From Escherichia coli (GTDB lineage: Bacteria; Pseudomonadota; Gammaproteobacteria; Enterobacterales; Enterobacteriaceae), in the NCBI RefSeq assembly GCF_024700885.2, contig NZ_CP117016.1: a stretch of DNA of 64,000 nt. One strand, written 5' to 3'. The notes below the pieces were generated by a model, which did no database searches, was not told where the DNA came from, and saw only the letters and a list, made by a program, of their open reading frames with translations. This document shows, piece after piece, positions 44,661-62,833 of this stretch (position 1 is the first letter of the stretch; every line of letters starts with the position of its first letter). Made by a program: the position numbers and the translations under genes.

Positions 44661-44705
44661 TTTTCTCTGCAAAACCTCTGCAAAACCCCTCTGCAAAACT
44701 GGTCA

Positions 44706-45836: not shown

Positions 45837-46062
45837 CTTCCAGTATCCTCTTCAAAGCAGGGTGATCTGTGGCGATCACCTCCGGCTTGTTTACCATTCC
45901 GACAAAGCGAGCTTGCGGATCCACTCGCCAGCGTCTTCCAACTTTTTTGGGGAGAGGAAATATCATTCCGGCTTTAGCGTATTTACTTAACGTACTCGGA
46001 GTAGGGACCGGTTCACTGAATTCCTCTTTTGCCCACTCAGTGAGCAGAATAAGTCTTGCCAT
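45814..46062 (-). CDS. xis: Excisionase (lambda Xis-like)
   Basis: 82-aa ORF just upstream of and overlapping int; basic winged-helix-like core (GMIFPLPKKVGRRWRV). Confidence 0.65.
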   Translation of the reverse strand: MARLILLTEWAKEEFSEPVPTPSTLSKYAKAGMIFPLPKKVGRRWRVDPQARFVGMVNKPEVIATDHPALKRILEDGAPAKI

Positions 46063-46126
46063 GAGCGTCGTTCGCTAATCATGGTCGCCGCCACTATAGC
46101 TGGTGGGCAACGACCGGGGTTGAACA

Positions 46127-48571
46127 TTAAAAATCAGCCTGATTCGGGATCAGTTTTTGCCAGATAACTGAAACGTATTTTGCCTGGTAACGGGCGTCAT
46201 CAAGTGCATTATGGCGCTCACCTTCGAATGGAATAGCCGTTCTGGCATCGAAGTCTATGGCTTTCCCCAGCTCAACGATTGTGCGTACATCTCGATCGTT
46301 GTAGTAACGCCACGGGCAGGGGATCCCCTGCCGTTCGTATGAACGGCGCAAAATCGTGTTGTCGAAGTTGGCTCCATTTCCCCAGACCTGAACAAAAAAT
46401 TCACCGGAGTTTTCGTCGATAAATTCCCGCAATTGTAACAGTGCATCATCTAACGGGATTTCATCGGTCATAATGGCAGATTGCGCTTCGCGTGATTGCT
46501 TAAGCCACCATTTAATGGTGTCCCGATCAATGACCCCGCCAGCAGTTTCCAGATCGATAGTCTTACTAAATTCCGGTCCCATATCTCCGGTTTGCGGATC
46601 GAAAAATATTGCACCTATTGAGATGATCGGGGCATCAGGATTTTTTCCCATGGTTTCAAGGTCGATCATTAGATGGTCACACGTCCTGCTGGTGGATGTG
46701 ATAATGTAATGATCGTTCACCGTAATTAAGGGATCTGCCGTCTCGCCAGTTTCACTATCGCTGGCGTGATCCTGAGCGCTGCCAGCATTCTCCTTGTGTG
46801 GATGTTCAGCGCCTTCCATTTCCTTCGGATCATTTTCCTGAACTTCAACCTGATTCTCTTCATCGAATGTTTCCTGGTATGTTGCGTCGCCCATCACCGC
46901 GCCACAATCAGGGCAGTTACCGCCGCCGGTCTGACCGCAGGCGGTGCAGACTTTTTCCACTTCCTGTTGCGCCACTGGTTCAGGCTGTTTCGTTTCTGGC
47001 TCGTTTTGTTGCGTATTTGGGCTGTTTTGTTCCGCTTTCTGGTCGTTCTGTTCCGATTCTTGCTGGTTCTGGTTTACAGAATCGCGGGTTTCAATCCCCT
47101 TTACCCATTTCGGATCATTCGGGTCGCTAATCCCTGCAACAAATTCTCCGCGAGAGGCAGCCAGTAATTTGTCTGCATCGACAGGATTTTTGGGCGGAAT
47201 GTTTTTCCGGGCTTCATAGAGTTCTGCCCGCAGTTTCTGATATTTCGCATCAACAGAATTTACCTGTGACTGAGCATCCAGCGGCTGCGTGTCCTGATGA
47301 TGTTCAGTTGCATCCGGTTCCACTGTTTCAGCCGTTGCCTGTTCATCTGCCATTGCGCAAGATGGTTGCAGTTTTTCTTCATCATCCTGTTTTTCTTCTT
47401 CTGTTACACGCTGCGGCATCGGGGCAGAGGAACGACCGCAGGCAATATCCACGATTTCTGGATCAGGGTTGGCATGATCAGTTTCAGTCAGTACTTTGTT
47501 AAGATATTCAGTGACGTGTGCGGGGATAACCTCGATCCCAATTGGTGCTTCTTTTACGGACGCAACCACGATGGCGCGGGAATAATCCAGCCCGCCAGGC
47601 ATGGTGATGAATTTGTCGCGGAAAACAGAAAAGGGCGGTTTATTTTCAGCGATAATTTCCTCGACACGTTTAGCGTGTGCCGGATGAAGGTTATAAATGT
47701 CCACGTCCATTGAACGAGCCAGTACGCCAGTGGCTACGTCGCGCGCCAGTGACGTCAGATCGTGAACGAAACCTTCGCCGCGATCGGTGAGGTTCCCGCC
47801 GCCAGCATTAGCGCCGGAAGCCGTGCGCGTGATGCGTGAAACACGATTTCCTTTCATCCACTCTTTTGTCAGCAGACCGCGATCGGTGTAGTCTGCGTCC
47901 AGGTATGCTTCGAAAAAAGCAGTCATCAGCCCCAGGCTTGAATTGCCTGGATTAGGGAAAACTCTGTCAGTATCACGCACCAGTTTGTGGAGATCGCGAA
48001 TTTCCAGCGGGTCGAGCAGGCTGGTTTTGTGGGAAACAGCCAGGGCAGTAACAGCTGGTAGTTCTTCAGCTCGTGCAATGTGTAATGCCTGTAGTTCGTT
48101 GCGTGAAACGTGCGTTACCGGTTTTTCGCTGCCGTGTTGAGCAAGCCAGCGAATGGGCAGCTCCTGACCGGAAATCGGGAGTAGCATATTCTCCTCAATC
48201 TCCGTCATGTCTTCGCCATTAACATTGGTATTGTCAGTGCTGGCTGGCTTGTCCTGCGCAGAGGATGAGGGCGCGATAAATACCATTGTGATGCCATCTT
48301 CCCCGCCTTTTTCGTAACGGTTGCAGAATTCCGTATCAAATACGCCTTCTGGTGGAAGGTCATCAACAACGGGCAAATTGACGCGAACAGGTTTTTTAAA
48401 GTCATCTTCATCGTAGCCAGCATCGTCAATCGCAACAGCACCACGATAGATGGCAATGGATAATTTTTTCGCTTCAGCCCAGTAGAAACCGCCTTTAATA
48501 CCGAGACGTTTTCTTACTTTGTCATTTTTTGCTTCGTAATACAGTGGGTAAACTTGTTTATCGGTGCTCAT
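46127..48571 (-). CDS. Large early-region protein (814 aa) with C-terminal DEDDh (DnaQ-like) 3'-5' exonuclease domain
   Basis: C-terminal ~180 aa carry Exo I (MIDLETMG), Exo II ([12 protein letters not shown]) and Exo III (HNALDDARY) motifs; the central segment is highly acidic/low-complexity with a CxxC...CxxC zinc ribbon ([16 protein letters not shown]). Confidence 0.6.
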
Positions 48572-48670
48572 TGCTTTTTAACCTCAACTCAGATTAAAAT
48601 TAATGCGAGTGATGAATAAATGTCCCAGGTTCTTCACTCAGGCCTGCACAGTGTGCAGGCTTTCTTTTTT

Positions 48671-48946
48671 TCAGATTTCACCTTTTAATTTCATTGCAAT
48701 CAGAGTTGCCAGAAATTCGGCTTTTTTTTCTGCGGGCAGATTCTTTCCTATGTGCACCAGACACATTTTTTTAACACCATCGTTAAGTGTTTTAACGTTG
48801 CCTGTTGAACTGTCGATATCAACCACAGTGAATGGGGTTTCTTTATTTTCTGTTTTAATCACGTAGCCAATACGTTTTCCCTCCAGGATAACTTCGAGCA
48901 CAATGCCATCAGTAGTAACAATGGTGGCTTCATAACTGTTAATCAT
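48671..48946 (-). CDS. Hypothetical phage protein (91 aa)
   Basis: ATG at 48946 preceded by AAGGAG at 6-nt spacing (MINSYEATIVTTDGIVLEVILEGKRIGYV...); the 16-codon upstream extension in the track is rejected. Confidence 0.5.
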   Translation of the reverse strand: MINSYEATIVTTDGIVLEVILEGKRIGYVIKTENKETPFTVVDIDSSTGNVKTLNDGVKKMCLVHIGKNLPAEKKAEFLATLIAMKLKGEI

Positions 48947-49020
48947 GTTTTTCTCCTTAATTAAGGTTGAGCGAATCTCTGCCATTGCTGGCATAAATTC
49001 AGTTTTGAATAGTCAGTTAA

Positions 49021-49308
49021 TTAAAGTTCGTGTGCCATCTGGTATTTTTCGGCGCATTGCTTACAGCAGTATTTATGCTCCTTACGTGCAATAAGGGAAC
49101 CGTGCATATAAATAATTTCAGCGGTAAAGGCTTTTTCAGGTTCAATTTGTTTATTACAGAGCGTATATGCACAGGGAATTAAATCCGGGTCACCCTTTTG
49201 CTGGAGGATTTTTCTGATTCTCCACAGCCATTTTTTAATTCCGGTGTGACTGATGGTCTGCCTGGAGGCAGGCGTAAAACAATAATCAAGCATGGGGTTC
49301 ATATCCAT
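49021..49308 (-). CDS. Hypothetical Cys-rich phage protein (95 aa), possible zinc-binding
   Basis: ORF with clustered cysteines (PCAYTLC, KYCCKQC); same strand and operon context as neighbours. Confidence 0.4.
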   Translation of the reverse strand: MDMNPMLDYCFTPASRQTISHTGIKKWLWRIRKILQQKGDPDLIPCAYTLCNKQIEPEKAFTAEIIYMHGSLIARKEHKYCCKQCAEKYQMAHEL

Positions 49309-49318
49309 AGCTCCATTT

Positions 49319-49873
49319 TTATTTTAAGGAAAGCAACTGCTCTACGGTCATATTTTTAATTGCGCTCCGGTTTACAAGAGTCCAGCCTTGTTGCTCCAGA
49401 TAAAACAGGAAGGTATCCAGGGTGCAGACCATTGCGCCGTCAGGAACGGTTTCAGTGAATTTGATATTGCCGTGTTCGTCGAGACGGATAACCAGGGTGC
49501 GTCCGTCCCCGTGAATCATTTTGTCGGGAGACGGGGCGTTATTCTGGCGCAGTTCAGCTTCCATGCGGTCGAACTCAGCAATGTATGCCTCTTTAAATGC
49601 AGCGGCTTTTTTGCCAGTGAAGCCCATCACCAGGAAAACGAAGCCGTTTTTGGTGATTTGGTACATTGGGAGTTTGCGCCCGGTTGAGTCGGTGTATTCG
49701 CTCGACACAAAATTGTGCTCAGTGAATTTTGCTGAACAGTCCAGATTGCGAATTTTATCCAACACTCGTTCGTGGCGTTTGCCAAAGAACTCGGCGATCG
49801 CAACAGACGTAGTGACAGCGCGACCATTTTCGATGGTTACGTCAGGGTGAGAAAGGGTAAGGATAGTAGCCAT
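49319..49873 (-). CDS. Rha-family phage regulatory protein (184 aa)
   Basis: ATG at 49873 preceded by GGAGG; N-terminal motif VTTSVAIAEFFGKRHERVLDKIRNL and downstream PMYQITKNGFVFLVMGFTGKKAAAFKEAYIAEFDRME match the pRha pattern. The 100-codon upstream extension of the track ORF reads through a terminator hairpin and is rejected. Confidence 0.65.
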   Translation of the reverse strand: MATILTLSHPDVTIENGRAVTTSVAIAEFFGKRHERVLDKIRNLDCSAKFTEHNFVSSEYTDSTGRKLPMYQITKNGFVFLVMGFTGKKAAAFKEAYIAEFDRMEAELRQNNAPSPDKMIHGDGRTLVIRLDEHGNIKFTETVPDGAMVCTLDTFLFYLEQQGWTLVNRSAIKNMTVEQLLSLK

Positions 49874-50042
49874 GATGGCAGCCTCCGCGATGAATTTGAT
49901 TAACTCACCACCGAGGTTTTCCACGACCATAAGGGTGGTGAGACGTACAGGGGTGGAAATACCGGTCATCACGGAACCCGGCCAGCCTTGCGGCTGCCCT
50001 GCACGCCCCACCATAATGCGAATGTGGCTGTGCTTAACGCAT

Positions 50043-50064
50043 AAAAAAACCGCCTGAGCGCGGT
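50043..50064 (-). terminator. Rho-independent terminator downstream of the DicF-like sRNA
   Basis: On the minus strand, aaccgcgctcaggcggtt hairpin followed by TTTTTTT. Confidence 0.55.
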
Positions 50065-50352
50065 TATGCGCCGTGAATGATTTCGGGTTTCCACGCCCGG
50101 CACCCGTTTTATGAGGTGCAGGTGCACTATAATTCCACCCGTTCTGGTTTTCAATAGCTACATTCAACATTTTCTCTACCTTTCATCACCGAAGTGAACT
50201 TTGTTGATGCGGTGCCTGGTGCCTCCAGGTGATGTTAACCAGTTAACAATTAACGCCGGATACAGAGAATCCACCCATAACACTGTTTTTGGTTTTAACT
50301 GTTCCGCGTGCGCTGAGCCGCATTCACCGCATCACAAAATTCACTTTAAAAA

Positions 50353-50405
50353 GGGCGGCAGAGCAGTCACGGAGTAAAACTGATACCGCCAAAAGTCACC
50401 AGAAA
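50353..50405 (-). ncRNA. dicF: DicF-like sRNA (cell-division inhibitor sRNA of Qin-type prophages)
   Basis: Minus-strand 53 nt TTTCTGGTGACTTTTGGCGGTATCAGTTTTACTCCGTGACTGCTCTGCCGCCC differs at one position from the K-12 DicF sequence as I recall it; followed by a T-run. Confidence 0.65.
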
Positions 50406-50737
50406 ATTGATAACAGAGGGCGTTGCAGCGGAGTTGTCACTTAAGCGTATGGTCAACCTGACAACCCGGTGTCCTCAACGGGGGAAGGAATAACCCCGCC
50501 ATACTTACCGCCGCGCCATTTCGCGGAGTGCCACAACCGGAAGCGCACGGTCGAACTAAATTTAACGACACCGTACAGAGAGACCAATTTCGCCGTGCGC
50601 TTTCGCGTTATGCCCTGACTTTTCAGGGACATATCCTTTCAGTAAACTGTCAGTGCCGGATGTTCACCCGTGTCCGGCGCACGCACTCCACCTGACCCGT
50701 GGAGAACTCCTTAATTACCAACCCTCAGGAGGGTGAA

Positions 50738-51016
50738 ATGGATAAAAAGCAAATTGAGGCCCTGCAATCTATTATTGAAAAACAAGATGAAGCTATCAGG
50801 ATTCTTTCATATCGCACTGATATGATACTAAATATGCTTTCTGCATTAACGGCTGCGCTTGGTGGTACAAAAACAAACGTATACCGCGAAGTTGTTATTC
50901 AACAGATAGATAAATTTGAAAAAACCATACCAGGTATTAATGCTCATCTTGCAGAACAAGAGAAAGACCATGCTCTTATGGCAATTTCTTCAGTAGCTCT
51001 CCCGAAAGTTGAGTAG
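50738..51016 (+). CDS. Hypothetical AT-rich cargo protein (92 aa), convergent to the neighbouring minus-strand operon
   Basis: ATG at 50738 preceded by AGGAGG at 6-nt spacing (MDKKQIEALQSIIEKQDEAIRILSYRTDMILNMLSALTAALGG...); local GC is clearly below the flanks; 3' end overlaps the convergent 137-aa gene by 41 nt. Confidence 0.5.
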   Translation: MDKKQIEALQSIIEKQDEAIRILSYRTDMILNMLSALTAALGGTKTNVYREVVIQQIDKFEKTIPGINAHLAEQEKDHALMAISSVALPKVE

Positions 51017-51389
51017 TTTTAATTGTTGTTTTGAAATAATCACTGCTTTCACATTTGAGTGATTTCATGGCAATCCAAATGCGGGCCTCTGTGCCTGCAT
51101 TTGGTTCCAGTTGCTGTAGACGTTTTGCGTCTTCCAAAAGTAAGGCGATAATGTGTTTCAGCTTCTCATCATTTGCTTGATTCTTGTTTTCAGGCGAATT
51201 CTGTCCGCCGAATAGGCGCTTCTCTTCATACAGACCTATAAAGGCACGACGCACGTTACCGGATATAGTATCGATGGTTTCCTTTTCTACAGTACTCAGG
51301 TCAAGAGTCGCCAGTTGAGAGCGAACCACATTCGATGCCATTTCCTGGAATGGTACTGGTAAATCTTTAAATTCCATCGTCAACCTCAT
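50976..51389 (-). CDS. Hypothetical phage protein (137 aa; alternative start at 51377 after GAGG)
   Basis: ORF whose ATG overlaps the stop of the upstream gene (ATGA), suggesting translational coupling. Confidence 0.5.
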   Translation of the reverse strand: MRLTMEFKDLPVPFQEMASNVVRSQLATLDLSTVEKETIDTISGNVRRAFIGLYEEKRLFGGQNSPENKNQANDEKLKHIIALLLEDAKRLQQLEPNAGTEARIWIAMKSLKCESSDYFKTTIKTTQLSGELLKKLP

Positions 51390-51541
51390 CAGTCAGTGTT
51401 TCTGGTTAACCAGCGACGTGCGCCAGCTTCAGTTTTAAACGTTTTGCTTCTGGTATATGTCATCGCGGTAAACGTGCCGTCCTGGTTGGGAAACACGCCG
51501 CATACCAGAGATTCGTTGTTGCCAAGCTCGATAGTATCCAT
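51389..51541 (-). CDS. Small YdfA-like protein (50 aa)
   Basis: ATG at 51541 preceded by GAGG (MDTIELGNNESLVCGVFPNQDGTFTAMTYTRSKTFKTEAGARRWLTRNTD); it is the first gene after the repressor terminator, as ydfA follows dicA in Qin. The track ORF extends 27 codons upstream. Confidence 0.45.
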   Translation of the reverse strand: MDTIELGNNESLVCGVFPNQDGTFTAMTYTRSKTFKTEAGARRWLTRNTD

Positions 51542-51783
51542 GCTGACCTCATTTCCCCTTAACGCCGGGGTAGCGGAACAAAAACCTGCTGCATAGTTAT
51601 TAAAGTTGAACCCTGCCGTCATGTTCTTACGCCTCGGGCTGGCTACTTACCCCCTGACCACTGCTTGGTAACTCGAAGTATTGCCCGGCGTTCTGTGGGG
51701 CGGGGTGGGTTGGTATGTTGTTAAGGTAACAAGAGTTACCTTTCGAGTCAATACAATGTTGCAAAAGGTACATTTGAGGGCAT

Positions 51784-51807
51784 AAAAAACCCGCAATGAA
51801 TGCGGGT
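51784..51807 (-). terminator. Rho-independent terminator immediately after the cI-like repressor gene
   Basis: On the minus strand, acccgcattcattgcgggt hairpin followed by TTTTTTAT, starting 7 nt after the repressor stop. Confidence 0.6.
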
Positions 51808-51813
51808 TCTGAC

Positions 51814-52488
51814 TCAGTCTAAGTATTGATGTATTTGTGAAACTTTACCTTTAATGGTGTAACCACCATTCAGTTCGATGGGTTTGTAAAGCGGATTCAG
51901 TGACAACAGATAGATGTTTGGTCCGTCAATCGCAACTTTTTTTAGTGTTACGTTTGGCGTTCCTTCCAATTGGATTAAGATTATTTTTCCCACCAGTTCT
52001 CTAATGTTACTTGAGCATGGTGTGATCAGCACGGTAGATCCGTCGGGGATGGTTGGGAGGCCGTTAGAGTTTGTCATCGCATCTCCCTCAACATGCAATA
52101 AAAAAGAGTTTTCAGCGGTTTTTGTCATGACATCAACCCAGTTCTTAATACCAGGAATCTTGGTTACTGGACAACTCATATCCCAATAACCAGCCTGTTC
52201 CCACGTTAAAACGGGCAACCGGGCGATGTTGTCACTAATGTAAGGGTACTGATTCAGACGCAGATCATCGGTTTTATCGTGACCGTCCTTTCCATAAAGA
52301 ATCCATTCAGGAGATTTGGAAAGCAATTTTGACAGTAGATACAAATTCTCACCGTCAGGTTTTGAAGAGCCATTTTCCCATTTTGTTACGGATACACGAG
52401 ATATGCCGATTGCTTTCGCAACCTGCTGTTGGGTTAATCCAACGTCTTTTCGACGATTCCGAATACGTTCGCTGATAGTGTTTTTCAT
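51814..52488 (-). CDS. cI: CI-like prophage repressor (HTH_XRE plus S24 LexA-like peptidase domain)
   Basis: N-terminal XRE HTH (GLTQQQVAKAIGISRVSVTKWENG) and C-terminal S24-like domain; divergent from the cro-like gene. Start chosen at ATG 52488 (MKNTISERIR..., 224 aa, no SD, compatible with a leaderless PRM-type transcript); alternative start at 52530. Confidence 0.8.
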   Translation of the reverse strand: MKNTISERIRNRRKDVGLTQQQVAKAIGISRVSVTKWENGSSKPDGENLYLLSKLLSKSPEWILYGKDGHDKTDDLRLNQYPYISDNIARLPVLTWEQAGYWDMSCPVTKIPGIKNWVDVMTKTAENSFLLHVEGDAMTNSNGLPTIPDGSTVLITPCSSNIRELVGKIILIQLEGTPNVTLKKVAIDGPNIYLLSLNPLYKPIELNGGYTIKGKVSQIHQYLD

Positions 52489-52550
52489 GTAACCAATGTT
52501 ACTACCAAGTGATGTTGCTATGGTTGACATTGTTATGTAACTATTGTTAC
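52489..52550. promoter_or_regulatory. Putative operator/divergent-promoter region between cI and cro
   Basis: Two 14-bp inverted repeats of the same form, GTAACCAATGTTAC (52489-52502) and GTAACTATTGTTAC (52537-52550), plus a TTGACA hexamer at 52524-52529. Confidence 0.4.
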
Positions 52551-52579
52551 CCTTCTGCTCGAAATAACAGGAGAGTTTT

Positions 52580-52795
52580 ATGTTCAAAGATGATGTTCTG
52601 CGCTATTTCAAAAAAAAGCGACTAGTAGCTGAGGCTCTTGGAATTTCACATGTGGCTGTTGTGCGGTGGAAAGCAGTTATTCCCAAACTTCGCGCAATGG
52701 AACTGGATGAAATTACTAACGGTGAATTGAAATACAACCCAGAACTTTACAAGAAGCAGGATAGCACCTCGAACGAAGGAAAGAATGATTCATGA
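52580..52795 (+). CDS. cro: Cro-like / YdaS-family HTH regulator (71 aa)
   Basis: Small HTH ORF (RLVAEALGISHVAVVRWKAVIP) divergent from cI; AGGAG RBS; stop overlaps the next gene (ATGA). Confidence 0.7.
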   Translation: MFKDDVLRYFKKKRLVAEALGISHVAVVRWKAVIPKLRAMELDEITNGELKYNPELYKKQDSTSNEGKNDS

Positions 52796-53217
52796 AAATC
52801 AAGCATGAACACATCCGCATGGCGATGAATGCCTGGGCGCATCCGGACGGCGAAAAAGTACCGGCTGCGAAAATTACCAAAGCGTATTTCGAGCTGGGAA
52901 TGACGTTCCCGGAACTGTATGACGACAGCCATCCGGAAGCCCTGGCCCGTAATACCCAGAAAATTTTCCGTTGGCTGGATAAAGACACCCCTGATGCTGT
53001 TGAAAAAATGCAGGCTCTGTTACCGGCGATCGAAAAGGCGATGCCGCCTTTGCTGGTGGCCCGTATGCGCAGCCACAGTTCTGAATATTACCGTGAGATC
53101 GTCGAACGGAGGGATCGGCTGGTGAAGGATGTCGATGATTTTGTTGCGTCAGCGGTTGTTTTGTATGACCAGATGAATCGCGGCGGCCCGGCAGGGAATG
53201 CTGTGGTGATGCACTAA
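52792..53217 (+). CDS. YdaT-family protein (141 aa), CII-position gene
   Basis: Starts MKIKHEHI and ends ...VVMH, like Rac YdaT; translationally coupled to the cro-like gene. Confidence 0.65.
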   Translation: MKIKHEHIRMAMNAWAHPDGEKVPAAKITKAYFELGMTFPELYDDSHPEALARNTQKIFRWLDKDTPDAVEKMQALLPAIEKAMPPLLVARMRSHSSEYYREIVERRDRLVKDVDDFVASAVVLYDQMNRGGPAGNAVVMH

Positions 53218-53239
53218 AAGCACGGTGTTCGGGGGTTTT

Positions 53240-54202
53240 ATGAGCAGCAAGCTTCATGGTCTTGTCTGGGAAGGGTGCGCCTTCACCGGCATGATCTTAT
53301 CCAGGGTGGCGGTTATGGCCCGTCTTGCAGACTACAGCAATGACGAGGGCGTGTCATGGCCTGCCATTGAAACTATCCGGCGTCAGATCGGTGCAAGAAG
53401 TGAATCCACAGTGAAATCGGCTATTGCAGAACTGGCGAAAGAGGGCTGGCTGACGAAGGAAGAGCGTAAGGTCGGTGGGCGTAATGTAAGCAATATCTAT
53501 CGGCTTAATGTGGAAAAACTCGAAGCAGCTGCGGCGGCGGCGCGTGAGTCATATAAACCGAAAAGAAAAATTAGCCCGGCAAAAAATGACCCGTTAACAG
53601 TTGACCCGTCAAATATTGACCCCTCAACGGTTGACCCGTCAAATTTTGATGGATCAACTGTTGATAAAAAACTGCCGATTAGGGGGCCGATGATTGACCC
53701 CGATCCGTCAGTATTAAAACCTGATCCGTCAGATAAAAGATCTTCTTGTCCGGACGCTTCGCAACCGGACCCGCAGACGGCTGAACAGGATTTTTTAACC
53801 CGACACCCTGACGCGGTTGTGTTCAGTGCGAAAAAACGCCAGTGGGGAAGTCAGGAAGATTTGGTGTGCGCACAGTGGATCTGGGGACGAATCGTGAGTC
53901 TTTACGAGCAGGCGGCCAGCTATGATGGCGAGATCACTAGACCGAAAGAACCCAACTGGACAGCATGGGCCAATGACGTTCGCACAATGCGGATGCTGGA
54001 TGGCAGAACTCACAGACAAATTTGTGAAATGTTTGGGCGTCTCCAGCGGGATTCGTTCTGGGTAAAAAACATCATGAGTCCGGCAAAACTCCGGGAAAAA
54101 TGGGATGAACTGGTTATCCGCCTGGGGCGTTCGCCTGCGCAGCGTTGCGTGAATCACATTTCTGAACCGGACACTGAAATACCGCCGGGATTCAGGGGGT
54201 GA
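53240..54202 (+). CDS. Replication initiator (lambda O-like / YdaU-like) containing the putative origin iterons
   Basis: ATG at 53240 preceded by GGGGG; N-terminal winged-helix-like region; iterons lie inside the coding sequence; followed by a DnaC-like gene. Confidence 0.6.
   Translation: MSSKLHGLVWEGCAFTGMILSRVAVMARLADYSNDEGVSWPAIETIRRQIGARSESTVKSAIAELAKEGWLTKEERKVGGRNVSNIYRLNVEKLEAAAAAARESYKPKRKISPAKNDPLTVDPSNIDPSTVDPSNFDGSTVDKKLPIRGPMIDPDPSVLKPDPSDKRSSCPDASQPDPQTAEQDFLTRHPDAVVFSAKKRQWGSQEDLVCAQWIWGRIVSLYEQAASYDGEITRPKEPNWTAWANDVRTMRMLDGRTHRQICEMFGRLQRDSFWVKNIMSPAKLREKWDELVIRLGRSPAQRCVNHISEPDTEIPPGFRG
53586..53726. repeat. Putative phage replication origin: iterons within the O-like gene
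   Basis: Repeated TGACCCGTCAA-type motifs at 53586-53599, 53600-53614, 53616-53629 and 53629-53644, related ATCCGTCAG copies at 53703-53726, and an A-rich stretch at 53661-53671. Confidence 0.5.
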
Positions 54203-54208
54203 CGTGTC

Positions 54209-54955
54209 ATGAAAAACATTGCGGCAGTTGGGGTTCTTGAACGTATTCGCAGACTTGCACCACAGGGGTCGGTTCCACCGTACCGGACGGTGGAGGAGTG
54301 GCGGGAATGGCAACTTGCTGAAGGACGAAAACGCAGCGAGGAGATTAACCGCCAGAATCGCCAGTTGCGGGTGGAAAAAATCCTGAATCGTTCGGGCATC
54401 CAGCCTCTGCACAGCAAATGCTCGTTTGCAAATTATCAGGTGCAGAACGACGGGCAAAAATACGCGCTGAGCCAGGCCAAATCCATAGCTGACGAACTGA
54501 TGACCGGGTGCACGAATTTTGTGTTCAGCGGTAAAACCGGCACCGGGAAAAATCACCTTGCAGCGGCGATGGGCAACCGGCTGATGGTGAAGGGGCGCAG
54601 CGTGATTATCGTCACCGTGTCTGACGTCATGAGCGTGTTGCATGACAGCTACGACAACGGCAAATCCGGGGAAAAATTTTTACAGGAGCTTTGCGGGGTT
54701 GATTTGCTGGTCCTGGATGAAATAGGCGTTCAGCGGGAGACGAAAAACGAGCAGGTGGTATTGCACCAGATAATTGATCGCCGGACAGCATCACTGTGCA
54801 GTGTCGGGATGTTAACAAACCTGAATCATGCCGCAATGAGTACGCTTCTTGGTGAGAGGATTATGGACCGCATGACCATGAACGGTGGTCGATGGGTGAC
54901 GTTTAACTGGGATAGCTGGCGTCCAAATGTCAGCAATATGAGGGTTGTGAAGTAA
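54209..54955 (+). CDS. DnaC-like helicase loader (IstB-like AAA+ ATPase)
   Basis: Walker A GKTGTGKNHL and Walker B LLVLDEIG; 248 aa; directly after the initiator gene. Confidence 0.8.
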   Translation: MKNIAAVGVLERIRRLAPQGSVPPYRTVEEWREWQLAEGRKRSEEINRQNRQLRVEKILNRSGIQPLHSKCSFANYQVQNDGQKYALSQAKSIADELMTGCTNFVFSGKTGTGKNHLAAAMGNRLMVKGRSVIIVTVSDVMSVLHDSYDNGKSGEKFLQELCGVDLLVLDEIGVQRETKNEQVVLHQIIDRRTASLCSVGMLTNLNHAAMSTLLGERIMDRMTMNGGRWVTFNWDSWRPNVSNMRVVK

Positions 54956-54976
54956 TTTTGTCCGGAGGAAATTTTA

Positions 54977-55747
54977 ATGGAAACCGTATCTGACGCACTG
55001 AAAGCACTGAAAAAAGCCTCTTCACATGTGGTGGCAGCTCGCCTTGGAATCAGTCGTGAAGAGGCTGTCAACGAGCTGTGGGAACTCAAAAGAAATGGCG
55101 TCGTTGATAAAACTGGTCACACCTGGTTTCTGGCTGGCGAAGGTGAATCCCGGGTAACCGAAGAGCGGCCAGTAAAATCTGAAGCACAGGATATGCTGAC
55201 CGGGGAGGTCGAACAAAAAGTTACCGCAGACATGATGATTGAGTTTATCGGTCAGGATGGGGCTAAAACGTGTGAGGAACTGGCGGGTAAGTTCGGTGTC
55301 AGTACTCGCAAGGTTGCTTCCACGCTGGCGGTGGTAACCGCAACGGGGCGGCTGGCACGCGTTAATCAGAACGGTAAATTTCGTTACTGCATGCCGGGCG
55401 ATAATTTACCAGCAGAGCCGAAAGCCGCGCTGGTAACGGAAAGTGATGGTAAGGCCTTTCCTCAGCCAGCAGGTGCTGCGTTACCAGTCCGGGAAGCCGC
55501 AACACAGGAAGAAATTAAAACAGAAACTGTGGCGGACATTGTGCAGCCGTTGCCATCGTTTACCGAAACGCAAGCAGATGAGCTGATTTTTCCGTCCCTT
55601 CGCAGGGCAAACCTGGCGCTGCGCAGGGCGAAAAGTGATGTTCAGAAGTGGGAGCGAGTCTGCGCCGCGCTGCGGGAGCTGAACAAGCACCGGGATATTG
55701 TTCGACAGATTACTGATTCTTCCCGCCGTGTTGTATCGGAAAAGTGA
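54977..55747 (+). CDS. Hypothetical phage protein (256 aa) with two winged-helix-like segments
   Basis: ORF with RBS-like GGAGG upstream; segments VAARLGISREEAVNELWELKRNGVV and CEELAGKFGVSTRKVASTLAVV resemble HTH units. Confidence 0.45.
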   Translation: METVSDALKALKKASSHVVAARLGISREEAVNELWELKRNGVVDKTGHTWFLAGEGESRVTEERPVKSEAQDMLTGEVEQKVTADMMIEFIGQDGAKTCEELAGKFGVSTRKVASTLAVVTATGRLARVNQNGKFRYCMPGDNLPAEPKAALVTESDGKAFPQPAGAALPVREAATQEEIKTETVADIVQPLPSFTETQADELIFPSLRRANLALRRAKSDVQKWERVCAALRELNKHRDIVRQITDSSRRVVSEK

Positions 55748-55762
55748 TTGCCGGAGGCGCTT

Positions 55763-56185
55763 ATGGCAAAAGTATTTACACAAGAAGAGCGGGAAAAAAT
55801 TAAAGGGCAGGTTGTTGAACTTGTACGTCTGAGCGGTCGCGAGACGTTGCGGCAACTGGAAGCCAAGACAGGTGCGACAAGATATCTGATGAGTGTTCTC
55901 GCCAGAGAGCTGGTTGCCAGTGGCGATGTATACAACTCTGTTTACGGGTTATTCCCGTCTGAACAGGCGCGTAAGGACTGGCAAAACGCCCGCAAAAAAC
56001 TCTCAAGGGCAAATCTGAAGAAACCATCTGTGGTTGATCCTGACCTTATCTGGACATTACCCGACGGAGAAATACGCCGCTACGACAGGCGTATGAACAT
56101 AATCTGTCGCGAGTGCCGGAAGAGTGAAGTTATGCAGCGCATATTGTCGTTTTATCAGGGTGATGTTCGGTATTTATTGAAGTGA
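55763..56185 (+). CDS. Hypothetical phage protein (140 aa)
   Basis: ATG at 55763 preceded by GGAGG at 5-nt spacing (MAKVFTQEEREKIKGQVVELV...). Confidence 0.45.
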   Translation: MAKVFTQEEREKIKGQVVELVRLSGRETLRQLEAKTGATRYLMSVLARELVASGDVYNSVYGLFPSEQARKDWQNARKKLSRANLKKPSVVDPDLIWTLPDGEIRRYDRRMNIICRECRKSEVMQRILSFYQGDVRYLLK

Positions 56186-56352
56186 CGAGATTAAAGTGCA
56201 TTAGTTCAGATGCAAATTGACATTTTGTGGCACAGGGTAGAGCTAGCGTGGTTGTCCGCTTTGTGCCAGAAGCGGACATAGCAGGTGCCAGATGCATTTG
56301 TTATTCTTCATTGAATTGAGCAGTATCCTTAACAGGAACTCTGAATACATAA

Positions 56353-56991
56353 ATGAAGATGAAAAACATGTCTGAAGTGTTGACCCAAGAAAAGCTTATT
56401 TTTGTTGCCCAGAGACTAAATGCCCTCGCGCAGTCAGGCCTGACCTATTCAAAAGACGTCTTTGACAAGGAACGCTATGAAGCCTTGCGTGAAATTGCCG
56501 CTGGACTGCTGAGTTCGCAGTTTGATATTAGCCGCAATGATTTGTTTCATGTATCGGAAACGGGTTACGCGACGCCCAAAACAGATGTGCGTGCGTTTAT
56601 CCTGCGTAATAATCGTATTCTGATGGTGAAAGAGGCTGCAGATGGATTATGGAGTCTTCCTGGCGGATGGGCAGATGTTGGAGATACACCTTCTGAAGCT
56701 GTGCGTCGAGAGGTCGAAGAAGAAACCGGATTAAAAGTCAGAGTGACTAAACTATTGGGAGTTTGGGATCGTAATCTTCACGGCCATCCGCCTTTACCCT
56801 GGCATGTTTACAAGCTGATTTTTCTCTGTGAAGAAGTAGGTGGCAGCCTGTCAATCAGCCATGAGTCACTCGATGCTGATTTTTTTGATGTCAACGACCT
56901 GCCTGAATTGTCGCTTTCAAGAATTGTGCCTGAGCAGATTGCTGTCAGCCTGAGAGTAGCGAAAGGTGATGAAAAAACATGGTTTGATTAA
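56353..56991 (+). CDS. NUDIX hydrolase with Nudix_N-type N-terminal domain (prophage cargo)
   Basis: Nudix box GGWADVGDTPSEAVRREVEEETGL (Gx5Ex7REUxEExGU); N-terminal ~60 aa resemble the Nudix N-terminal extension of ADP-ribose pyrophosphatase-type enzymes. Start may be 56359 or 56368. Confidence 0.8.
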   Translation: MKMKNMSEVLTQEKLIFVAQRLNALAQSGLTYSKDVFDKERYEALREIAAGLLSSQFDISRNDLFHVSETGYATPKTDVRAFILRNNRILMVKEAADGLWSLPGGWADVGDTPSEAVRREVEEETGLKVRVTKLLGVWDRNLHGHPPLPWHVYKLIFLCEEVGGSLSISHESLDADFFDVNDLPELSLSRIVPEQIAVSLRVAKGDEKTWFD

Positions 56992-57020
56992 CTTTCTTCT
57001 GCAACCATTAAGGAATGGCA

Positions 57021-57659
57021 ATGATATTCAACGCTAAGGGTTTTTTATTCGATATGGACGGTACGCTGGTTGATTCAACAGCCGTAGTGGAAAGCGTCTG
57101 GAGAGATTTTTGTGCAGAATACGGTCTTGATACTCAGGCTGTGATTGCTTACGCACACGGGCGGCAAACGATTGATACACTGACGCATTTTATTGGTGCA
57201 GGTGAGAAAACCAATAAAATCGCGGCCTCACTCGAAGAGGTTGAAATCAACACGACAGAAGGCGTTACTGAAGTAAAAGGGGCCGCTGCACTCTTATCAA
57301 AACTGCCACCGGATAGCTGGGCACTTGTTACTTCTGCAGGCAGAATGCTTGCCGAAAACAGGATGAAAGCGGCTAATCTCCCCTTACCCATAGTAATGGT
57401 GTGTGCAGAAGATGTAATGACGGGAAAACCAAGTCCCGAGGGTTACATCAAAGCAGCTTTGGCTTTGGGCCTTGAGCCTGGTGAATGCGTGGTATTTGAG
57501 GATGCATCTGCGGGTATAAAAGCAGGGCTGGCAAGTGGAGCTTCGGTAATAGCTGTTCAGCCTGACGCTCTGGGATCATCTGAAGCCCATGCCGTCAGCG
57601 AGCTGTCTGACATTATGGTCAAGATTTCCGGAGAACGTTTCAATATCATCTGTGGTTAA
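57021..57659 (+). CDS. HAD-superfamily phosphatase (beta-phosphoglucomutase-like subfamily)
   Basis: Motif I FDMDGTLVDS, motif II VTSAG, motif IV EDASAGIKAG; ATG at 57021 is 6 nt after AAGGA; 29 bp downstream of the Nudix gene. Confidence 0.8.
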   Translation: MIFNAKGFLFDMDGTLVDSTAVVESVWRDFCAEYGLDTQAVIAYAHGRQTIDTLTHFIGAGEKTNKIAASLEEVEINTTEGVTEVKGAAALLSKLPPDSWALVTSAGRMLAENRMKAANLPLPIVMVCAEDVMTGKPSPEGYIKAALALGLEPGECVVFEDASAGIKAGLASGASVIAVQPDALGSSEAHAVSELSDIMVKISGERFNIICG

Positions 57660-57922
57660 TCACGTTACACAATACGCATCAATGGACGCTGAGTAGTTCG
57701 CGAGTTTTAAACTTCCAACGTCCGCTTTTCGCTCAAAGCGGACTAGAAGGTTAGCTTGCGTCGGACTTGGCGTATTTAAAGAAGTGCTGGTGGTGACTGG
57801 TTGTTGTGTTCCATTTCTACAGAACAAAATCACAGAAACTATACCCAATAGTTGTATTGAATCACTGACGAGACAGCCTCATATTTATCAGGACTGGTGT
57901 ACGTCCAATACAGGAGGTTGTG

Positions 57923-58012
57923 GTGCTGGTTCTCAAATGTGCGCTGGCTATTGCTGCTGTAATGGCAATTTATTGCCTTGCTGTTGTTCTTATGGATCGC
58001 CTTTCTGATTGA
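57923..58012 (+). CDS. Candidate small hydrophobic peptide (29 aa) with strong Shine-Dalgarno
   Basis: AGGAGG at 57912-57917, then GTG at 57923 (or 57920); translation MLVLKCALAIAAVMAIYCLAVVLMDRLSD has a single predicted TM helix and charged tail; not in the ORF track (<60 aa). Confidence 0.3.
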   Translation: MLVLKCALAIAAVMAIYCLAVVLMDRLSD

Positions 58013-58223
58013 TTTCATATTGGCGAGGTGACGGGAGTTAAGTAGAATGGCTGCGGGTGCTTGAGGCTATCTGTCTCAGGCATGAACACCAAAGGCAGAT
58101 AGAGAAAAGCCCCAGTTAACATTACGCGTCCTGCAAGACGCTTAACATTAATCTGAGGCCATATCTATGCTCTACACACGTAGGTTAGCCTCTTACGTGC
58201 CGAAAGGCAAGGAGAAGCAGGCT

Positions 58224-58379
58224 ATGAAGCAGCAAAAGGCGATGCTAATCGCCCTGATCGTCATCTGTTTAACCGTCATGGTGACGGCACTGGTAACGAG
58301 GAAAGACCTCTGCGAGGTACGAATCCGAACCGGCCAGACGGAGGTCGCTGTCTTCACAGCTTACGAACCTGAGGAGTAA
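58224..58379 (+). CDS. hok: Hok/Gef-family type I toxin (51 aa), near-identical to HokD/RelF
   Basis: MKQQKAMLIALIVICLTVMVTALVTRKDLCEVRIRTGQTEVAVFTAYEPEE; the in-frame upstream extension in the track (from 58167) is not the toxin start. Confidence 0.85.
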   Translation: MKQQKAMLIALIVICLTVMVTALVTRKDLCEVRIRTGQTEVAVFTAYEPEE

Positions 58380-58447
58380 GAGACCCGGCGGGGGAGAAAT
58401 CCCTCGCCACCGCTGATGTGTCAGGCATCCTCAACGCACCCGCACTT

Positions 58448-58474
58448 AACCCGCTTCGGCGGGTTTTGTTTTTT
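58448..58474 (+). terminator. Rho-independent terminator after hok
   Basis: aacccgcttcggcgggtt hairpin followed by TTGTTTTTT. Confidence 0.65.
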
Positions 58475-58546
58475 CTGGTCGTTCTGGTTTACAATCCATC
58501 CGTCAGCCTGAACAACTGGCACCTGCTGCGCCAGCAGAGAAAACAG

Positions 58547-58825
58547 ATGGCGCACGATACCAAATTTTACAATTCGGATAACTCTGCCGCCCCTGCCAGC
58601 AGGCACGGGCGGCGTTCTCATGCATTCAAATCTGACTGGTATCAGCACGACCCCTGCACCGAAGAACAGGCTGAATGGCTCATTCAGTGTTACCGCAGGC
58701 GCGGATGCGAGGTTAAAAAAGCCCTTAGCCTCGACTACCGTCACTGGATAATCTCCGTCAGGCTCCCTTACTCAGAACGGCCAGCGCGTCCGTCCCGCAC
58801 ATTCCAGCAACGGATCTGGAGGTAA
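58547..58825 (+). CDS. Hypothetical protein (92 aa), Rem-position gene
   Basis: ATG at 58547 after the hok terminator (MAHDTKFYNSDNSAAPASRHGRR...); occupies the slot between hok and the DUF968-like gene, as rem does in Qin. Confidence 0.4.
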   Translation: MAHDTKFYNSDNSAAPASRHGRRSHAFKSDWYQHDPCTEEQAEWLIQCYRRRGCEVKKALSLDYRHWIISVRLPYSERPARPSRTFQQRIWR

Positions 58826-58826
58826 T

Positions 58827-59885
58827 GTGCGGGTATTACTTCGACCTGTTCTGGTACCGGAACTCGGTCTGGTTATCGTTAAGCCAGGCCGTGAATCAAT
58901 GTCAGCATTCCATAACGGCAGAATACTGGTGGAGCCGGAACCAAAAAGCATGCGTAATCTGCCGTCCGGGGTCGTTCCTGCCGCTCGCCAGCCGCTGGTG
59001 GAAGACAAAACATTGCTGCCGTTTTTCAGTAACGCACGGGTGATTCGTGCTGCTGGTGGTGCTGGTGCATTGTCTGACTGGCTGTTGCGCCATATTAAAT
59101 CCTGCCAGTGGCCACACGGCGATTATCATCACAGCGAAACCGTCATTCACCGTTATGGTACCGGCGCAATGGTGTTGTGCTGGCACTGCGACAACCAGCT
59201 GCGTGACCAGACATCCGAATCACTCGGGCAACTTGCTCATCAAAACCTGTCAGCATGGATGATTGACGTCATCGGTCACGCAATAAGCGGTACGCAGGAG
59301 CGTGAATTATCTCTGGCTGAATTATCCTGGTGGGCGGTCCGCAATCAGGTGGCGGACGCGCTACCGGAAGCGGTATTACGTCGTTCGCTGGGGTTGCGTG
59401 CGGAAAAAATTCGCTCTGTGTACAGTGAAAGCGACATCATACCGGGAGAGCAGACCGCCACCAGCATACTGAAGCAGCGCACAAAAAATATTGCGTTACT
59501 GCCTCACGTCCACCAGCAACAGAACCCACCACAGGAAAAGACGGTGGTCAGCATTGCCGTTGATCCGGAGTCACCGGCTCAGTATCTCCAGCGCCAGAAA
59601 TCACAACGGGAAGAGATGCCTGTATACACGCGCTGGGTAAAAACGCAGAAATGCATGACGTGTGGCAATCAGGCAGATGATCCGCATCACATCATTGGTC
59701 ATGGACTGGGAGGGATGGGAACAAAGGCTGATGATTTGTTTGTTATTCCGTTATGCCGTAAATGCCGTAACGAACTACATGCCGGAGTAAAAGATTTTGA
59801 AGAGAAACACGGCAGTCAGCTGTTGTTGCTGATTCGTTTTTTAATGCACGCGAGAAATTCGGGTGTTCTGAAGTGGAAAGCATAA
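58827..59885 (+). CDS. DUF968-like protein (YdfU-like, 352 aa)
   Basis: GTG at 58827 preceded by GGAGG; Cys/His-rich C-terminal segment (CMTCGNQADDPHHIIGHGLGG...CRKCRNELH); synteny hok-rem-ydfU as in Qin. Confidence 0.55.
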   Translation: MRVLLRPVLVPELGLVIVKPGRESMSAFHNGRILVEPEPKSMRNLPSGVVPAARQPLVEDKTLLPFFSNARVIRAAGGAGALSDWLLRHIKSCQWPHGDYHHSETVIHRYGTGAMVLCWHCDNQLRDQTSESLGQLAHQNLSAWMIDVIGHAISGTQERELSLAELSWWAVRNQVADALPEAVLRRSLGLRAEKIRSVYSESDIIPGEQTATSILKQRTKNIALLPHVHQQQNPPQEKTVVSIAVDPESPAQYLQRQKSQREEMPVYTRWVKTQKCMTCGNQADDPHHIIGHGLGGMGTKADDLFVIPLCRKCRNELHAGVKDFEEKHGSQLLLLIRFLMHARNSGVLKWKA

Positions 59886-60266
59886 ATGACCGAGCGCATA
59901 GAATTTGTTTTACCTTACCCGCCGACGGTGAACACTTACTGGCGACGCCGTGGCAGCACATATTTTATCTCGGAGGAGGGAAAGCGTTATCGCCGGGCTG
60001 TGGCGCTTATTGTTCGCCAGCAGCGGCTGAAATTAAGCCTGTCCGGAAGGCTGGCGATAAAGGTGATTGCAGAGCCACCGGATAAGCGTCGTCGCGACCT
60101 GGACAATATCCTGAAAGCACCGCTGGATGCGCTGACGCATGCGGGAGTGTTAATGGACGATGAGCAGTTTGATGAAATCAATATCGTTCGTGGTCAGCCA
60201 GTATCTGGTGGACGTCTGGGGGTGAAGATTTACCCCATAATGCATGAAGAGCAGGTCAAAAAATGA
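59886..60266 (+). CDS. rusA: RusA-family Holliday-junction resolvase
   Basis: 126-aa ORF with MTERIEFVLPYPPTVNTYWRRRG and the catalytic-region motif DKRRRDLDNILKAPLDALTHAGVLMDDEQF. Confidence 0.75.
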   Translation: MTERIEFVLPYPPTVNTYWRRRGSTYFISEEGKRYRRAVALIVRQQRLKLSLSGRLAIKVIAEPPDKRRRDLDNILKAPLDALTHAGVLMDDEQFDEINIVRGQPVSGGRLGVKIYPIMHEEQVKK

Positions 60267-61084
60267 AACTGGAAGATTTACCGAAATACTACTCCCCAAA
60301 ATCCCCTGGCCTGACCGATGCATCGGCCTCAACGTCAAAAGATGCGCTGAGTATCACTGATGTGATGGCCGCGCAGGGCATGACACAGAATCGGGCTGAG
60401 ATGGGGTTTTCTGCGTTCCTGGGGAAAATGGGCATCAGTATGAATGACAGGGCGCGGGCAACAGAATTACTGGCAGATTATGCACTCAGTCGGTGCGATC
60501 GTGTGGCGGCGTTGAGAAAACTTCCGGCAGAAATAAAACCGGTAGTGATGCGCATTATGGCTTCGTACGCTTTTGAGGATTATGCCCGCAGCGCAGCGAG
60601 TAAAAAGCAGTGCCCCTGTTGCCGAGGGGAAAAATTTATTGAAGGCGAAGTTTTTACAAACAAGGTTCAGTATCCGGATGGCAAGCCGCCAGTATGGGCA
60701 AAGTGTACGAAAGGTGTGTATCCGTCTTACTGGGAAGAATGGAAAAAAATTCGGGAGGTGGTGAAAGTTTCTTGTCCTGAATGTAAAGGGAAGGGGGAGA
60801 TTTCCACTGCCTGTAAAGACTGCCGTGGGCGTGGTGTTGCCATTCATCGTGAAGAGTCGGTAAAACGTGGTATGCCTGTTATCAGAGACTGCCAGCGTTG
60901 TGGTGGTCGTGGCTGTGAAAGACTACCATCAACGGAGGCATTTAATGCCATACGCAAAGTGACGAGTGCTATCACGCTTGATACGTGGAAAAAATCAGTG
61001 AAACGCTTTTACGATACGTTGGTGGTTCGGTTTGACATTGAAGAGGCATGGGCGGAGCGGCAGTTAAAGAGGGTAACGCGATAG
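60263..61084 (+). CDS. Putative late-gene antiterminator (Q-like) with four DnaJ-type CxxCxGxG zinc-finger repeats
   Basis: Position (after rusA, before a strong terminator and the late region) is that of Q; contains CPCCRGEK, CPECKGKG, CKDCRGRG and CQRCGGRG. Confidence 0.5.
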   Translation: MKLEDLPKYYSPKSPGLTDASASTSKDALSITDVMAAQGMTQNRAEMGFSAFLGKMGISMNDRARATELLADYALSRCDRVAALRKLPAEIKPVVMRIMASYAFEDYARSAASKKQCPCCRGEKFIEGEVFTNKVQYPDGKPPVWAKCTKGVYPSYWEEWKKIREVVKVSCPECKGKGEISTACKDCRGRGVAIHREESVKRGMPVIRDCQRCGGRGCERLPSTEAFNAIRKVTSAITLDTWKKSVKRFYDTLVVRFDIEEAWAERQLKRVTR

Positions 61085-61165
61085 TGTTGTTGATTTTTCC
61101 CGAATCTGTGGTAAATTTGCTCTAACGATGGGCGTTTTATGCCTGACGTTAGAAGATTTTTTACA

Positions 61166-61188
61166 CCCCGCCGCCTGGCGGGTTTTTT
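61166..61188 (+). terminator. Rho-independent terminator downstream of the Q-like gene (tR'-like)
   Basis: cccgccgcctggcggg hairpin followed by TTTTTT. Confidence 0.65.
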
Positions 61189-61310
61189 ATGACTGAAATC
61201 GCGTCAGTACAGTAAACGCGCTGGTGGCGGTGAATACCTGTCTTTCAGCTTGCTGGCTTTTTCGACAAGAGTTATTGGTGTGTCACGTTAACCGGAAAAG
61301 GGAAAAAGAC

Positions 61311-61508
61311 ATGCTAAAACAGCAGGATATGACAGAAACCGCCAGAGTGGTGTTTAATGAATTAAGCGTTACCGAACCGGCGACAGTCGGGGAGATAGCG
61401 CAGAATACTTACCTTTCACGCGAACGCTGCCAGTTAATACTGACCCAGCTGGTTATGGCGGGTCTGGCAGACTATCAGTTCGGTTGTTACAGACGCCTTC
61501 AGTCCTGA
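61311..61508 (+). CDS. Small hypothetical protein (65 aa)
   Basis: ATG at 61311 after AAGGGA (MLKQQDMTETARVVFNELSVTEPATVGEIAQN...); ends inside a terminator hairpin. Confidence 0.4.
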   Translation: MLKQQDMTETARVVFNELSVTEPATVGEIAQNTYLSRERCQLILTQLVMAGLADYQFGCYRRLQS

Positions 61509-61518
61509 AGGCTTTTTT
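61494..61518 (+). terminator. Rho-independent terminator
   Basis: gccttcagtcctgaaggc hairpin followed by TTTTTTATTT. Confidence 0.65.
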
Positions 61519-61658
61519 ATTTGTGGTAAATGGGCGGCTGGTGGGTGTTAGGGGCACCCACCAGCCATCTGCTCATGCGTTGGGTTCACAAGCAAACCTC
61601 AGGCCCACTGCTTTGCGCAAAAGCAGAATGAGCCTATCAGAGACAGGCTTAATGATCC

Positions 61659-62708: not shown

Positions 62709-62757
62709 AACGGATGAGATTGCAGAATTAATTACGCACCATTATTATTCTGCTTCC

Positions 62758-62833
62758 GGCCCTTTAGCTCAGTGGTGAGAGCGAGCGACTCATAATCGCC
62801 AGGTCGCTGGTTCAAATCCAGCAAGGGCCACCA
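62758..62833 (+). tRNA. Prophage tRNA with CAU anticodon (Ile2/lysidine-type, ileZ-like; Met not excluded)
   Basis: 76 nt folding into a cloverleaf by hand: acceptor GGCCCTT/AAGGGCC, D-stem GCTC/GAGC, anticodon loop CTCATAA, T-arm GCTGG-TTCAAAT-CCAGC, 3' ACCA. Confidence 0.8.

Follow-up and report, generated by a model that had tools for sequence, protein, structure and literature searches.

A putative replication origin within the linker-coding part of a lambdoid prophage initiator gene in Escherichia coli

In the phages lambda, 434, phi80 and P22 the replication origin is located inside the initiator gene and carries iterons specific to that initiator. The 64,000-nucleotide stretch of E. 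coli chromosome analysed here (referred to as the window) includes a lambdoid prophage next to ompW, whose initiator gene 53240-54202 contains a series of short tandem repeats in its middle, and this raises the question of whether the repeats constitute the replication origin of the prophage, a control element, or only a repetitive piece of protein. On the basis of sequence comparison, the segment of about 53545-53749, which lies entirely inside the initiator ORF, is probably the replication origin of this prophage, embedded in the part of the gene that codes for a linker predicted to be disordered. Three rival explanations are all unlikely, and none of them explains the evidence as well as a lambdoid origin.

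A known replication start would help in reading prophage induction and copy-number data, in predicting the replication incompatibility or cross-activation of co-resident prophages, and in building mini-replicons. Relatives of the initiator are carried by serotype-converting Shigella phages, Stx phages (phiP27), and phages of Klebsiella, Citrobacter and Yersinia.

Prophage context and the initiator protein

DNA identical to that of the window was found in E. coli strain MLI114, where it belongs to a lambdoid prophage that adjoins ompW and is apparently complete. The gene order of the MLI114 prophage starts with integrase, excisionase, exonuclease, CI-like repressor, Cro, and a YdaT/CII-like gene, continues with the initiator, a DnaC-like ATPase, DUF1627, DUF977, morons, RusA and Q, and ends with lysis genes, terminase and head genes. 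The prophage of strain 4/1-1 is similar in gene order. Between DUF977 and hokD, genes for NUDIX and HAD hydrolases were identified in the window (56353-57659), whereas QueH occupies this place in 4/1-1, a difference which looks like moron exchange.

The genes for the repressor, Cro and the CII/YdaT-like protein are located upstream of the initiator gene (Table 1), so that the putative origin, like that of lambda, belongs to the rightward early operon. The product of the loader gene that follows is 80% identical to YdaV of the Rac prophage. At a coverage of at least 80%, about 1500 of the 5426 complete E. coli genomes, O157:H7 among them, carried the initiator allele with its repeats.

Table 1. 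Features of the initiator gene and its surroundings. Positions refer to the window, or to amino acids (aa) of the initiator.
Feature	Position	Strand	Sequence or content	Basis
Control genes upstream	51815-53217		CI/LexA-like repressor (-), Cro 52580-52795 (+), CII/YdaT-like 52792-53217 (+)	Pfam, PHROG, RefSeq of identical DNA
Initiator gene	53240-54202	+	320 aa	ORF; RefSeq 'helix-turn-helix domain-containing protein'
Initiator, winged-helix domain	aa 1-104			
Initiator, linker	aa 109-177			
Initiator, lambda-O-type C-terminal domain	aa about 190-297			
Initiator, DnaT-like tail	aa 300-320			
Left A-rich, low-stability tract	53545-53584		TGAGTCATATAAACCGAAAAGAAAAATTAG..., runs into degenerate first repeat	
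Iteron array	53571-53664		six units, exact 15-bp spacing, core TTGAC-CC-GTCAA	
Unit 1	53571-53582		TTAGCCCGGCAA, degenerate	
Unit 2	53586-53597		ATGACCCGTTAA	
Unit 3	53601-53612		TTGACCCGTCAA	
Unit 4	53616-53627		TTGACCCCTCAA	
Unit 5	53631-53642		TTGACCCGTCAA again	
Last unit	53646-53657		TTGATGGATCAA, site with central bases inverted	found on minus strand
Right of array	53660-53700		lone TTGAT half-site and A-tract GTTGATAAAAAACTG, G+C-rich spacer CCGATTAGGGGGCCG, TTGACCCC half-site	
A-tract downstream of array	53663-53671		GATAAAAAA	
Auxiliary sites and candidate unwinding segment	53701-53749			sequence, stability scan, diversity
First auxiliary site	53701-53711		cGATCCGTCAG	
Second auxiliary site	53721-53732		CTGATCCGTCAG, perfect TGA-N4-TCA palindrome	
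Exchangeable C-terminal module	53735-54202	+		start of nucleotide matches with initiators that differ in their N-terminal module
DnaC-like AAA+ helicase loader gene	54209-54955	+		phrog_50 E 8e-82; NCBIfam PRK12377 E 1e-152; DnaC E 2e-89

RefSeq labels the product of 53240-54202 as a helix-turn-helix protein only. Over its full length (aa 1-320), however, the protein matched phrog_391, 'replication initiation O-like', with an E-value of 4e-115. The sole Pfam match was HTH_36 at aa 25-71 (27.9 bits against a cut-off of 25), and no match to Phage_rep_O was obtained at the N-terminus. In the AlphaFold2 model the winged-helix part is separated from a helical domain (aa 201-297) by the linker, which is predicted to be disordered (pLDDT about 31-43). 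The N-terminal fold weakly matched winged-helix regulators that form dimers (MarR, ArsR and PaaX types), and a Foldseek search of the PDB with the whole model returned weak matches (E-value ≥6.5e-3) that were all generic winged-helix regulators, with no solved initiator among them.

According to BLASTP, aa 153-300 of the initiator align at 35% identity (E-value 5e-26) with aa 145-277 of lambda O, in the half of that protein which interacts with P, and no similarity was found between the N-termini of the two proteins. The repeats cover codons of about 111-141, all within the linker, and the annotated iterons of lambda cover codons 117-144 of O. In position and logic the arrangement does mirror ori-lambda within gene O, as the initial annotation had suggested. 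The designation 'O-like' holds for the C-terminal half and for the architecture of the protein; it does not hold for the N-terminal domain, which is of the HTH_36 and not of the Phage_rep_O type.

The last 21 codons of the gene (54137-54199) code for a tail, RCVNHISEPDTEIPPGFRG, which is closely similar to the very end of the host restart protein DnaT (PDB 2ru8, 6aep, 9zbt). The ending xPxGFR[GST] recurs in most initiator alleles, whatever gene follows, and lambda O is without such a tail. The DnaT-like tail may be a common handle for DnaC-type loaders or for the host primosome.

The repeat array and its flanking tracts

Closely spaced iteron copies inside the O-like gene had been reported in the initial annotation, and were confirmed as six units with a spacing of 15 bp. 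The core of the array consists of inverted TGA and TCA half-sites in alternation, at distances of 7 and 8 bp. Copies at the ends are degenerate, the spacer of the fifth copy is inverted, and a 30-bp super-period is present. Tandem Repeats Finder (TRF) returned periods of 15/30 with a score of 101 for the array, and no other tandem repeat in the window's share of the prophage scored as high. The array also produced the self-match peak of the whole 64 kb both at lag 15 (0.72, with the runner-up at 0.50) and at lag 30 (0.84, runner-up 0.58), and none of 1000 codon shuffles of the initiator gene reached its self-match. The generic core TGANNNNTCA as such occurred at chance level (21 in 64 kb against 18 expected), and five of these 21 fell within 53602-53731. 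The repeats encode the peptide NDPLTVDPSNIDPSTVDPSNFDGSTVD, and the repetitive peptide quoted in the initial annotation was exactly the product of the ORF.

Other tandem repeats of the window include three copies of 11-13 nt at the ompW junction, directly ahead of the integrase gene (44665-44699), four copies of 21 nt inside the exonuclease gene (46986-47068), and 4.1 copies of a 179-bp unit adjoining two tRNA-Tyr genes on the minus strand (18900-19823), which resembles the known tyrT-tyrV locus with its 178-bp repeats.

The element had been placed at 53586-53726; this location is correct, although the extent is somewhat larger (about 53545-53749). The A-rich tract and the further copies described beside the array are present as well, the latter as two copies of GATCCGTCAG at 53702-53711 and 53723-53732, which are 21 bp apart and are arranged around TATTAAAAC.

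The stability of the 3.6-kb early operon (52580-56185) was scanned in 30-mers with the nearest-neighbour method, and of the four 30-mers with the lowest stability three abut the array, with starts at 53545, 53642 and 53712. The least stable of all falls in the left A-rich tract, and the one starting at 53642 is the second least stable. The same script recovered the known A+T-rich region of lambda just to the right of iteron 4. The tracts at the array are shorter and milder than that of lambda (-33.2 versus -30.3 kcal/mol per 30-mer).

Three GATC sites are located within 41 bp, at 53702, 53723 and 53739. In the 85 bp after the array the density of GATC was 29 per kb versus 3.7 per kb elsewhere, and this array-adjacent cluster of two to three sites, an eight-fold enrichment, was kept in 12 of 12 lineages; inside the 15-bp units only one GATC was found, in the fifth. 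The conserved cluster hints that the putative origin may be sensitive to Dam or SeqA.

Matches to DnaA boxes near the array were at chance level and none stands out. No promoter-like site was found in 52400-55100, and the reading of the TTGAC repeats as promoter or terminator was dropped on this ground. An iteron-like palindrome, TGACGTGTCA, at the junction of the initiator stop and the loader start (54200-54209) is not conserved in other alleles and is probably due to chance.

An array with these properties could also bind the initiator for the purpose of control, by autorepression, titration or handcuffing, while the true origin would be elsewhere in the prophage. Iterons of plasmids have such double roles (PMC4980987), the A+T tracts are modest, and the window takes in only about 20 kb of the prophage. 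Nevertheless, no repeat cluster comparable to the array was found elsewhere in 44000-64000, the position of the array is homologous to that of ori-lambda, and both the low-stability tracts and the conserved GATC/AT segment directly adjoin it, and we consider a purely controlling role unlikely.

Conservation of the repeats and constraint on the DNA

Homologues collected from phage records and from 80 IMG/VR loci yielded 66 distinct alleles. The lineages compared were E. coli variants, SfIV, SfII, phiNP, Klebsiella and Yersinia (YeP2) phages, Flotzy, phiP27, an Stx2a phage, and IMG/VR contigs, with DNA-binding domains 52-93% identical to that of the window. In 12 of 12 diverged lineages, four to eight units with a 15-bp period and the core TGA-N4-TCA were located directly after the DNA-binding domain. 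Absence of the iterons from homologous initiator genes, named in the initial annotation as a finding that would speak against an origin, was thus seen in none of the lineages examined, all of which have a 15-bp-period array at the same place. Over 59 units, the positions T-G-A and T-C-A-A carry 1.3-1.9 bits each and the four bases between them 0.35-0.8 bits. The encoded peptide varies by lineage (VDPSN, SDASK, FEGSK, SEPSK) while TGA-N4-TCA persists.

A distant homologue in Vibrio phage (Va_PF430-3_p42), with a domain 35% identical to that of the window, has repeats of the GGTCAAAT type after the domain (L014, 1816-1870), so that the GTCAAA half-site may predate the enterobacterial clade.

At the codon level, the T of TGA falls on a third position and was conserved in 57 of the 59 units, while the first two positions of the same codon were nearly free. 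Serine was encoded by TCA in 51 of 73 cases within the arrays versus 70 of 318 in the remainder of these genes (P = 2e-14). Spacers were found in both orientations (CCCC or GGGG; TCCA or TGGA), so that DPS becomes DGS.

Polymorphism was examined among 36 E. coli alleles, with segments counted in nucleotides from the ATG. In the part encoding the DNA-binding domain (nt 1-315), 79% of third positions were variable, with a third-position pi of 0.214. The corresponding values were 20% and 0.021 in the A-rich tract before the array (nt 316-345), 40% and 0.087 in the array (nt 346-420), and 19% and 0.020 in the GATC/A+T segment (nt 463-510), the most conserved at synonymous sites, and they rose to 87% and 0.30 just downstream (nt 511-600). 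Variation in the array was without codon-position bias (0.40 at third positions versus 0.36 overall), unlike in the DNA-binding-domain part (0.79 versus 0.34). Natural alleles showed indels of 15 and 30 nt in the array, and in one allele a 21-nt deletion had removed one unit of the auxiliary (second) repeat.

The invariant wobble T, the preference for TCA serine, the flipped spacers and the low synonymous diversity support the view that the constraint at the repeats acts on the DNA and not on the peptide. The earlier proposal that this part of the protein is shaped by selection at the DNA level is in this respect backed by both the codon and the polymorphism tests, with the reservations that copies and lineages share descent and are not fully independent, and that recent duplication, gene conversion or mosaic history could account in part for the low synonymous diversity and the uniform codons.

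The same data bear on the explanation that the repeats are a flexible (V/I)DPS(N/T) spacer of the protein, grown by slippage, in which case the periodicity of the DNA would be a by-product with no role in cis. The repeats do lie in a linker predicted to be disordered, whole units vary in number among alleles as slippage predicts, and D-P-S-rich peptides recur across the family. Yet the conserved positions cut across codons, with an invariant wobble base beside variable first and second positions, the peptides differ (DPSNV, DASKS, EGSKF, EPSKS) under an unchanged TGA-N4-TCA, the units are palindromic, spacer flips replace P by G, and substitutions in the array lack the codon-position bias of the DNA-binding-domain part. 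A spacer at the protein level is accordingly quite improbable, and the repeats are better understood as sites in an origin.

If the repeats were the targets of the DNA-binding domain, the two would be expected to be exchanged together. In megablast comparisons, similarity to other initiators began at nt 478-511 of the gene, i.e. at about 53702-53735 of the window, right after the last site. Initiators of the mEp460 type have a C-terminal half with 86% nucleotide identity to that of the window and a different N-terminal domain, and the linker of phage mEp460 contains five 23-bp dyad repeats (CATCGGGTCAAAATG..CGATG; L099, 1632-1761). In the O protein of Min27, which also belongs to HTH_36, the domain is followed by 2.9 copies of GGTGGGGCAGGAGCTGCCCAGG, a G+C-rich repeat of 24 bp (L101, 1738-1801). 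Since another N-terminal domain comes with other repeats in mEp460 and Min27, the binding domain and the repeats are exchanged as one unit. A RefSeq hit named 'phage replication protein O' (H42) was considered as a fusion with Phage_rep_O and rejected, since it is of the mEp460 type.

That the repeats are targets of another protein, such as CI, Cro, the YdaT/CII-like activator or host SeqA/Dam, would agree with the GATC cluster kept in all lineages and with the resemblance of TTGAC to a -35 hexamer, but is very improbable, as the repeats co-segregate and change with the N-terminal domain of the initiator while the immunity genes vary independently, no TGA-N4-TCA site is present in the cI-cro intergenic region, and the array has neither a promoter-like site nor GATC in its units except the fifth.

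Comparison with known origins and a possible mechanism

The assignment of 53545-53749 as an origin is favoured by the match to phrog_391, the C-terminal homology to lambda O, the position of the iterons and the loader gene next to the initiator; by an array that is exceptional in the window, conserved in the family, constrained as DNA and linked to the DNA-binding module; and by the low-stability 30-mers next to the array. For P22 and phage L gene 18 the same line of argument has been published (PMC8022706).

The putative origin shares with ori-lambda its location within the initiator's coding sequence, where a linker joins the DNA-binding domain to a homologous C-terminal domain, the tandem dyad-symmetric sites, which here have short and milder A+T-rich tracts beside them, and the place in the rightward early operon behind cro and a gene resembling cII. 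The differences are in the DNA-binding domain, which in lambda O is Phage_rep_O (PF04492, E-value 6e-36) and here HTH_36, and in the sites, which in lambda are four 18-bp iterons about 20-24 bp apart and here five or six 12-bp sites with a 15-bp period. The window in addition has two extra GATC-bearing sites, a weaker A+T tract and a DnaT-like tail, and its loader is a DnaC/IstB-like AAA+ protein, whereas that of lambda is of the P type.

Gene 18 of P22 and phage L has its own short repeats in the coding region, which in phage L are six imprecise copies of an 11-bp sequence, and the origin has been inferred from sequence (PMC8022706), as in this study. These are distantly related lambdoid initiators, each with in-gene repeats, but both the repeat sequences and the proteins are different, and a DnaB-type helicase (gp12) takes the place of the DnaC-like loader. 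The arrays of mEp460 and Min27, too, are located directly after the DNA-binding domain, and mEp460 has the C-terminal module and Min27 the HTH_36 fold class of the window's initiator; their repeats of 23-24 bp are unrelated in sequence to those of the window.

In iteron plasmid origins (RepA, pi, TrfA), winged-helix initiators act on tandem repeats beside an A+T-rich unwinding element (PMC4980987). The window resembles them in having tandem repeats that adjoin short A+T-rich tracts and an initiator with a predicted winged-helix domain. The iterons of plasmids, however, are direct repeats of 17-22 bp in intergenic DNA, to which monomers bind and which DnaA boxes usually accompany, while the sites in the window are palindromes within a gene, with no conspicuous DnaA box.

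A search of the literature returned no paper on these motifs or on an origin for this protein family, and a full-text search for the motif sequences gave unrelated primer hits only. A paper on O and ori of Stx phages (PMC7466680) was set aside, since its 'P27' has lambda-type iterons and is not of the phiP27 L17 family. Iterons are not mentioned in a paper on the Eru replication region.

What would be new, as far as can be read from sequence, is a specificity type of the known lambdoid design of an origin within the initiator, with a DNA-binding domain from another family, repeats at a shorter period, auxiliary GATC sites and a loader of the DnaC type. This adds to the textbook design rather than introducing a new principle, and its selection signal is unusually clean; the locus offers a clean natural case of a cis-acting DNA element that dictates protein sequence.

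A possible course of events is as follows. Upon prophage induction, rightward early transcription would lead to synthesis of the initiator, and its N-terminal winged-helix domain, probably in the form of dimers, would bind the palindromic TGA-N4-TCA sites, i.e. the five or six sites at 15-bp spacing together with the two GATC-bearing sites 21 bp apart. The resulting nucleoprotein complex would destabilise one of the adjacent A+T tracts (53545-53574, 53642-53671 or 53712-53741), after which the lambda-O-type C-terminal domain, possibly with the DnaT-like tail, would recruit the DnaC-like loader with host DnaB. By analogy to lambda, transcription through the region may help initiation, and Dam or SeqA may have a role at the GATC cluster. 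A period of 15 bp, in which half-sites alternate at 7 and 8 bp, is unusual for winged-helix dimers and departs from the spacing of about 23 bp in lambda, and the geometry of the lambda O-some is not simply transferable. A more elaborate version, with a continuous spiral filament of winged-helix dimers on the alternating half-sites, Dam-methylatable GATC sites that gate unwinding, and handoff to DnaC-type loaders through the tail copied from DnaT, is speculative and must be regarded as doubtful.

The YdaU-YdaV pair of Rac is similar to the window in gene order (cro-like, YdaT-like, initiator, DnaC-like YdaV), in its closely related loader, and in the PPGFRG tail. Alignment with ydaU, which the initial annotation had proposed as a check, was uninformative, and YdaU was rejected as a homologue of the initiator: it is a DUF1376 protein, a domain that the window's initiator does not have, only its last 19 residues align, and its mid-gene repeats are different. 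The latter were observed in ydaU of E. coli K-12 Rac (L003, 4472-4563) as four copies of AAnCAGATGTTCAA with a spacing of 33, 33 and 12 bp, and are possibly the iterons of oriJ, the Rac origin.
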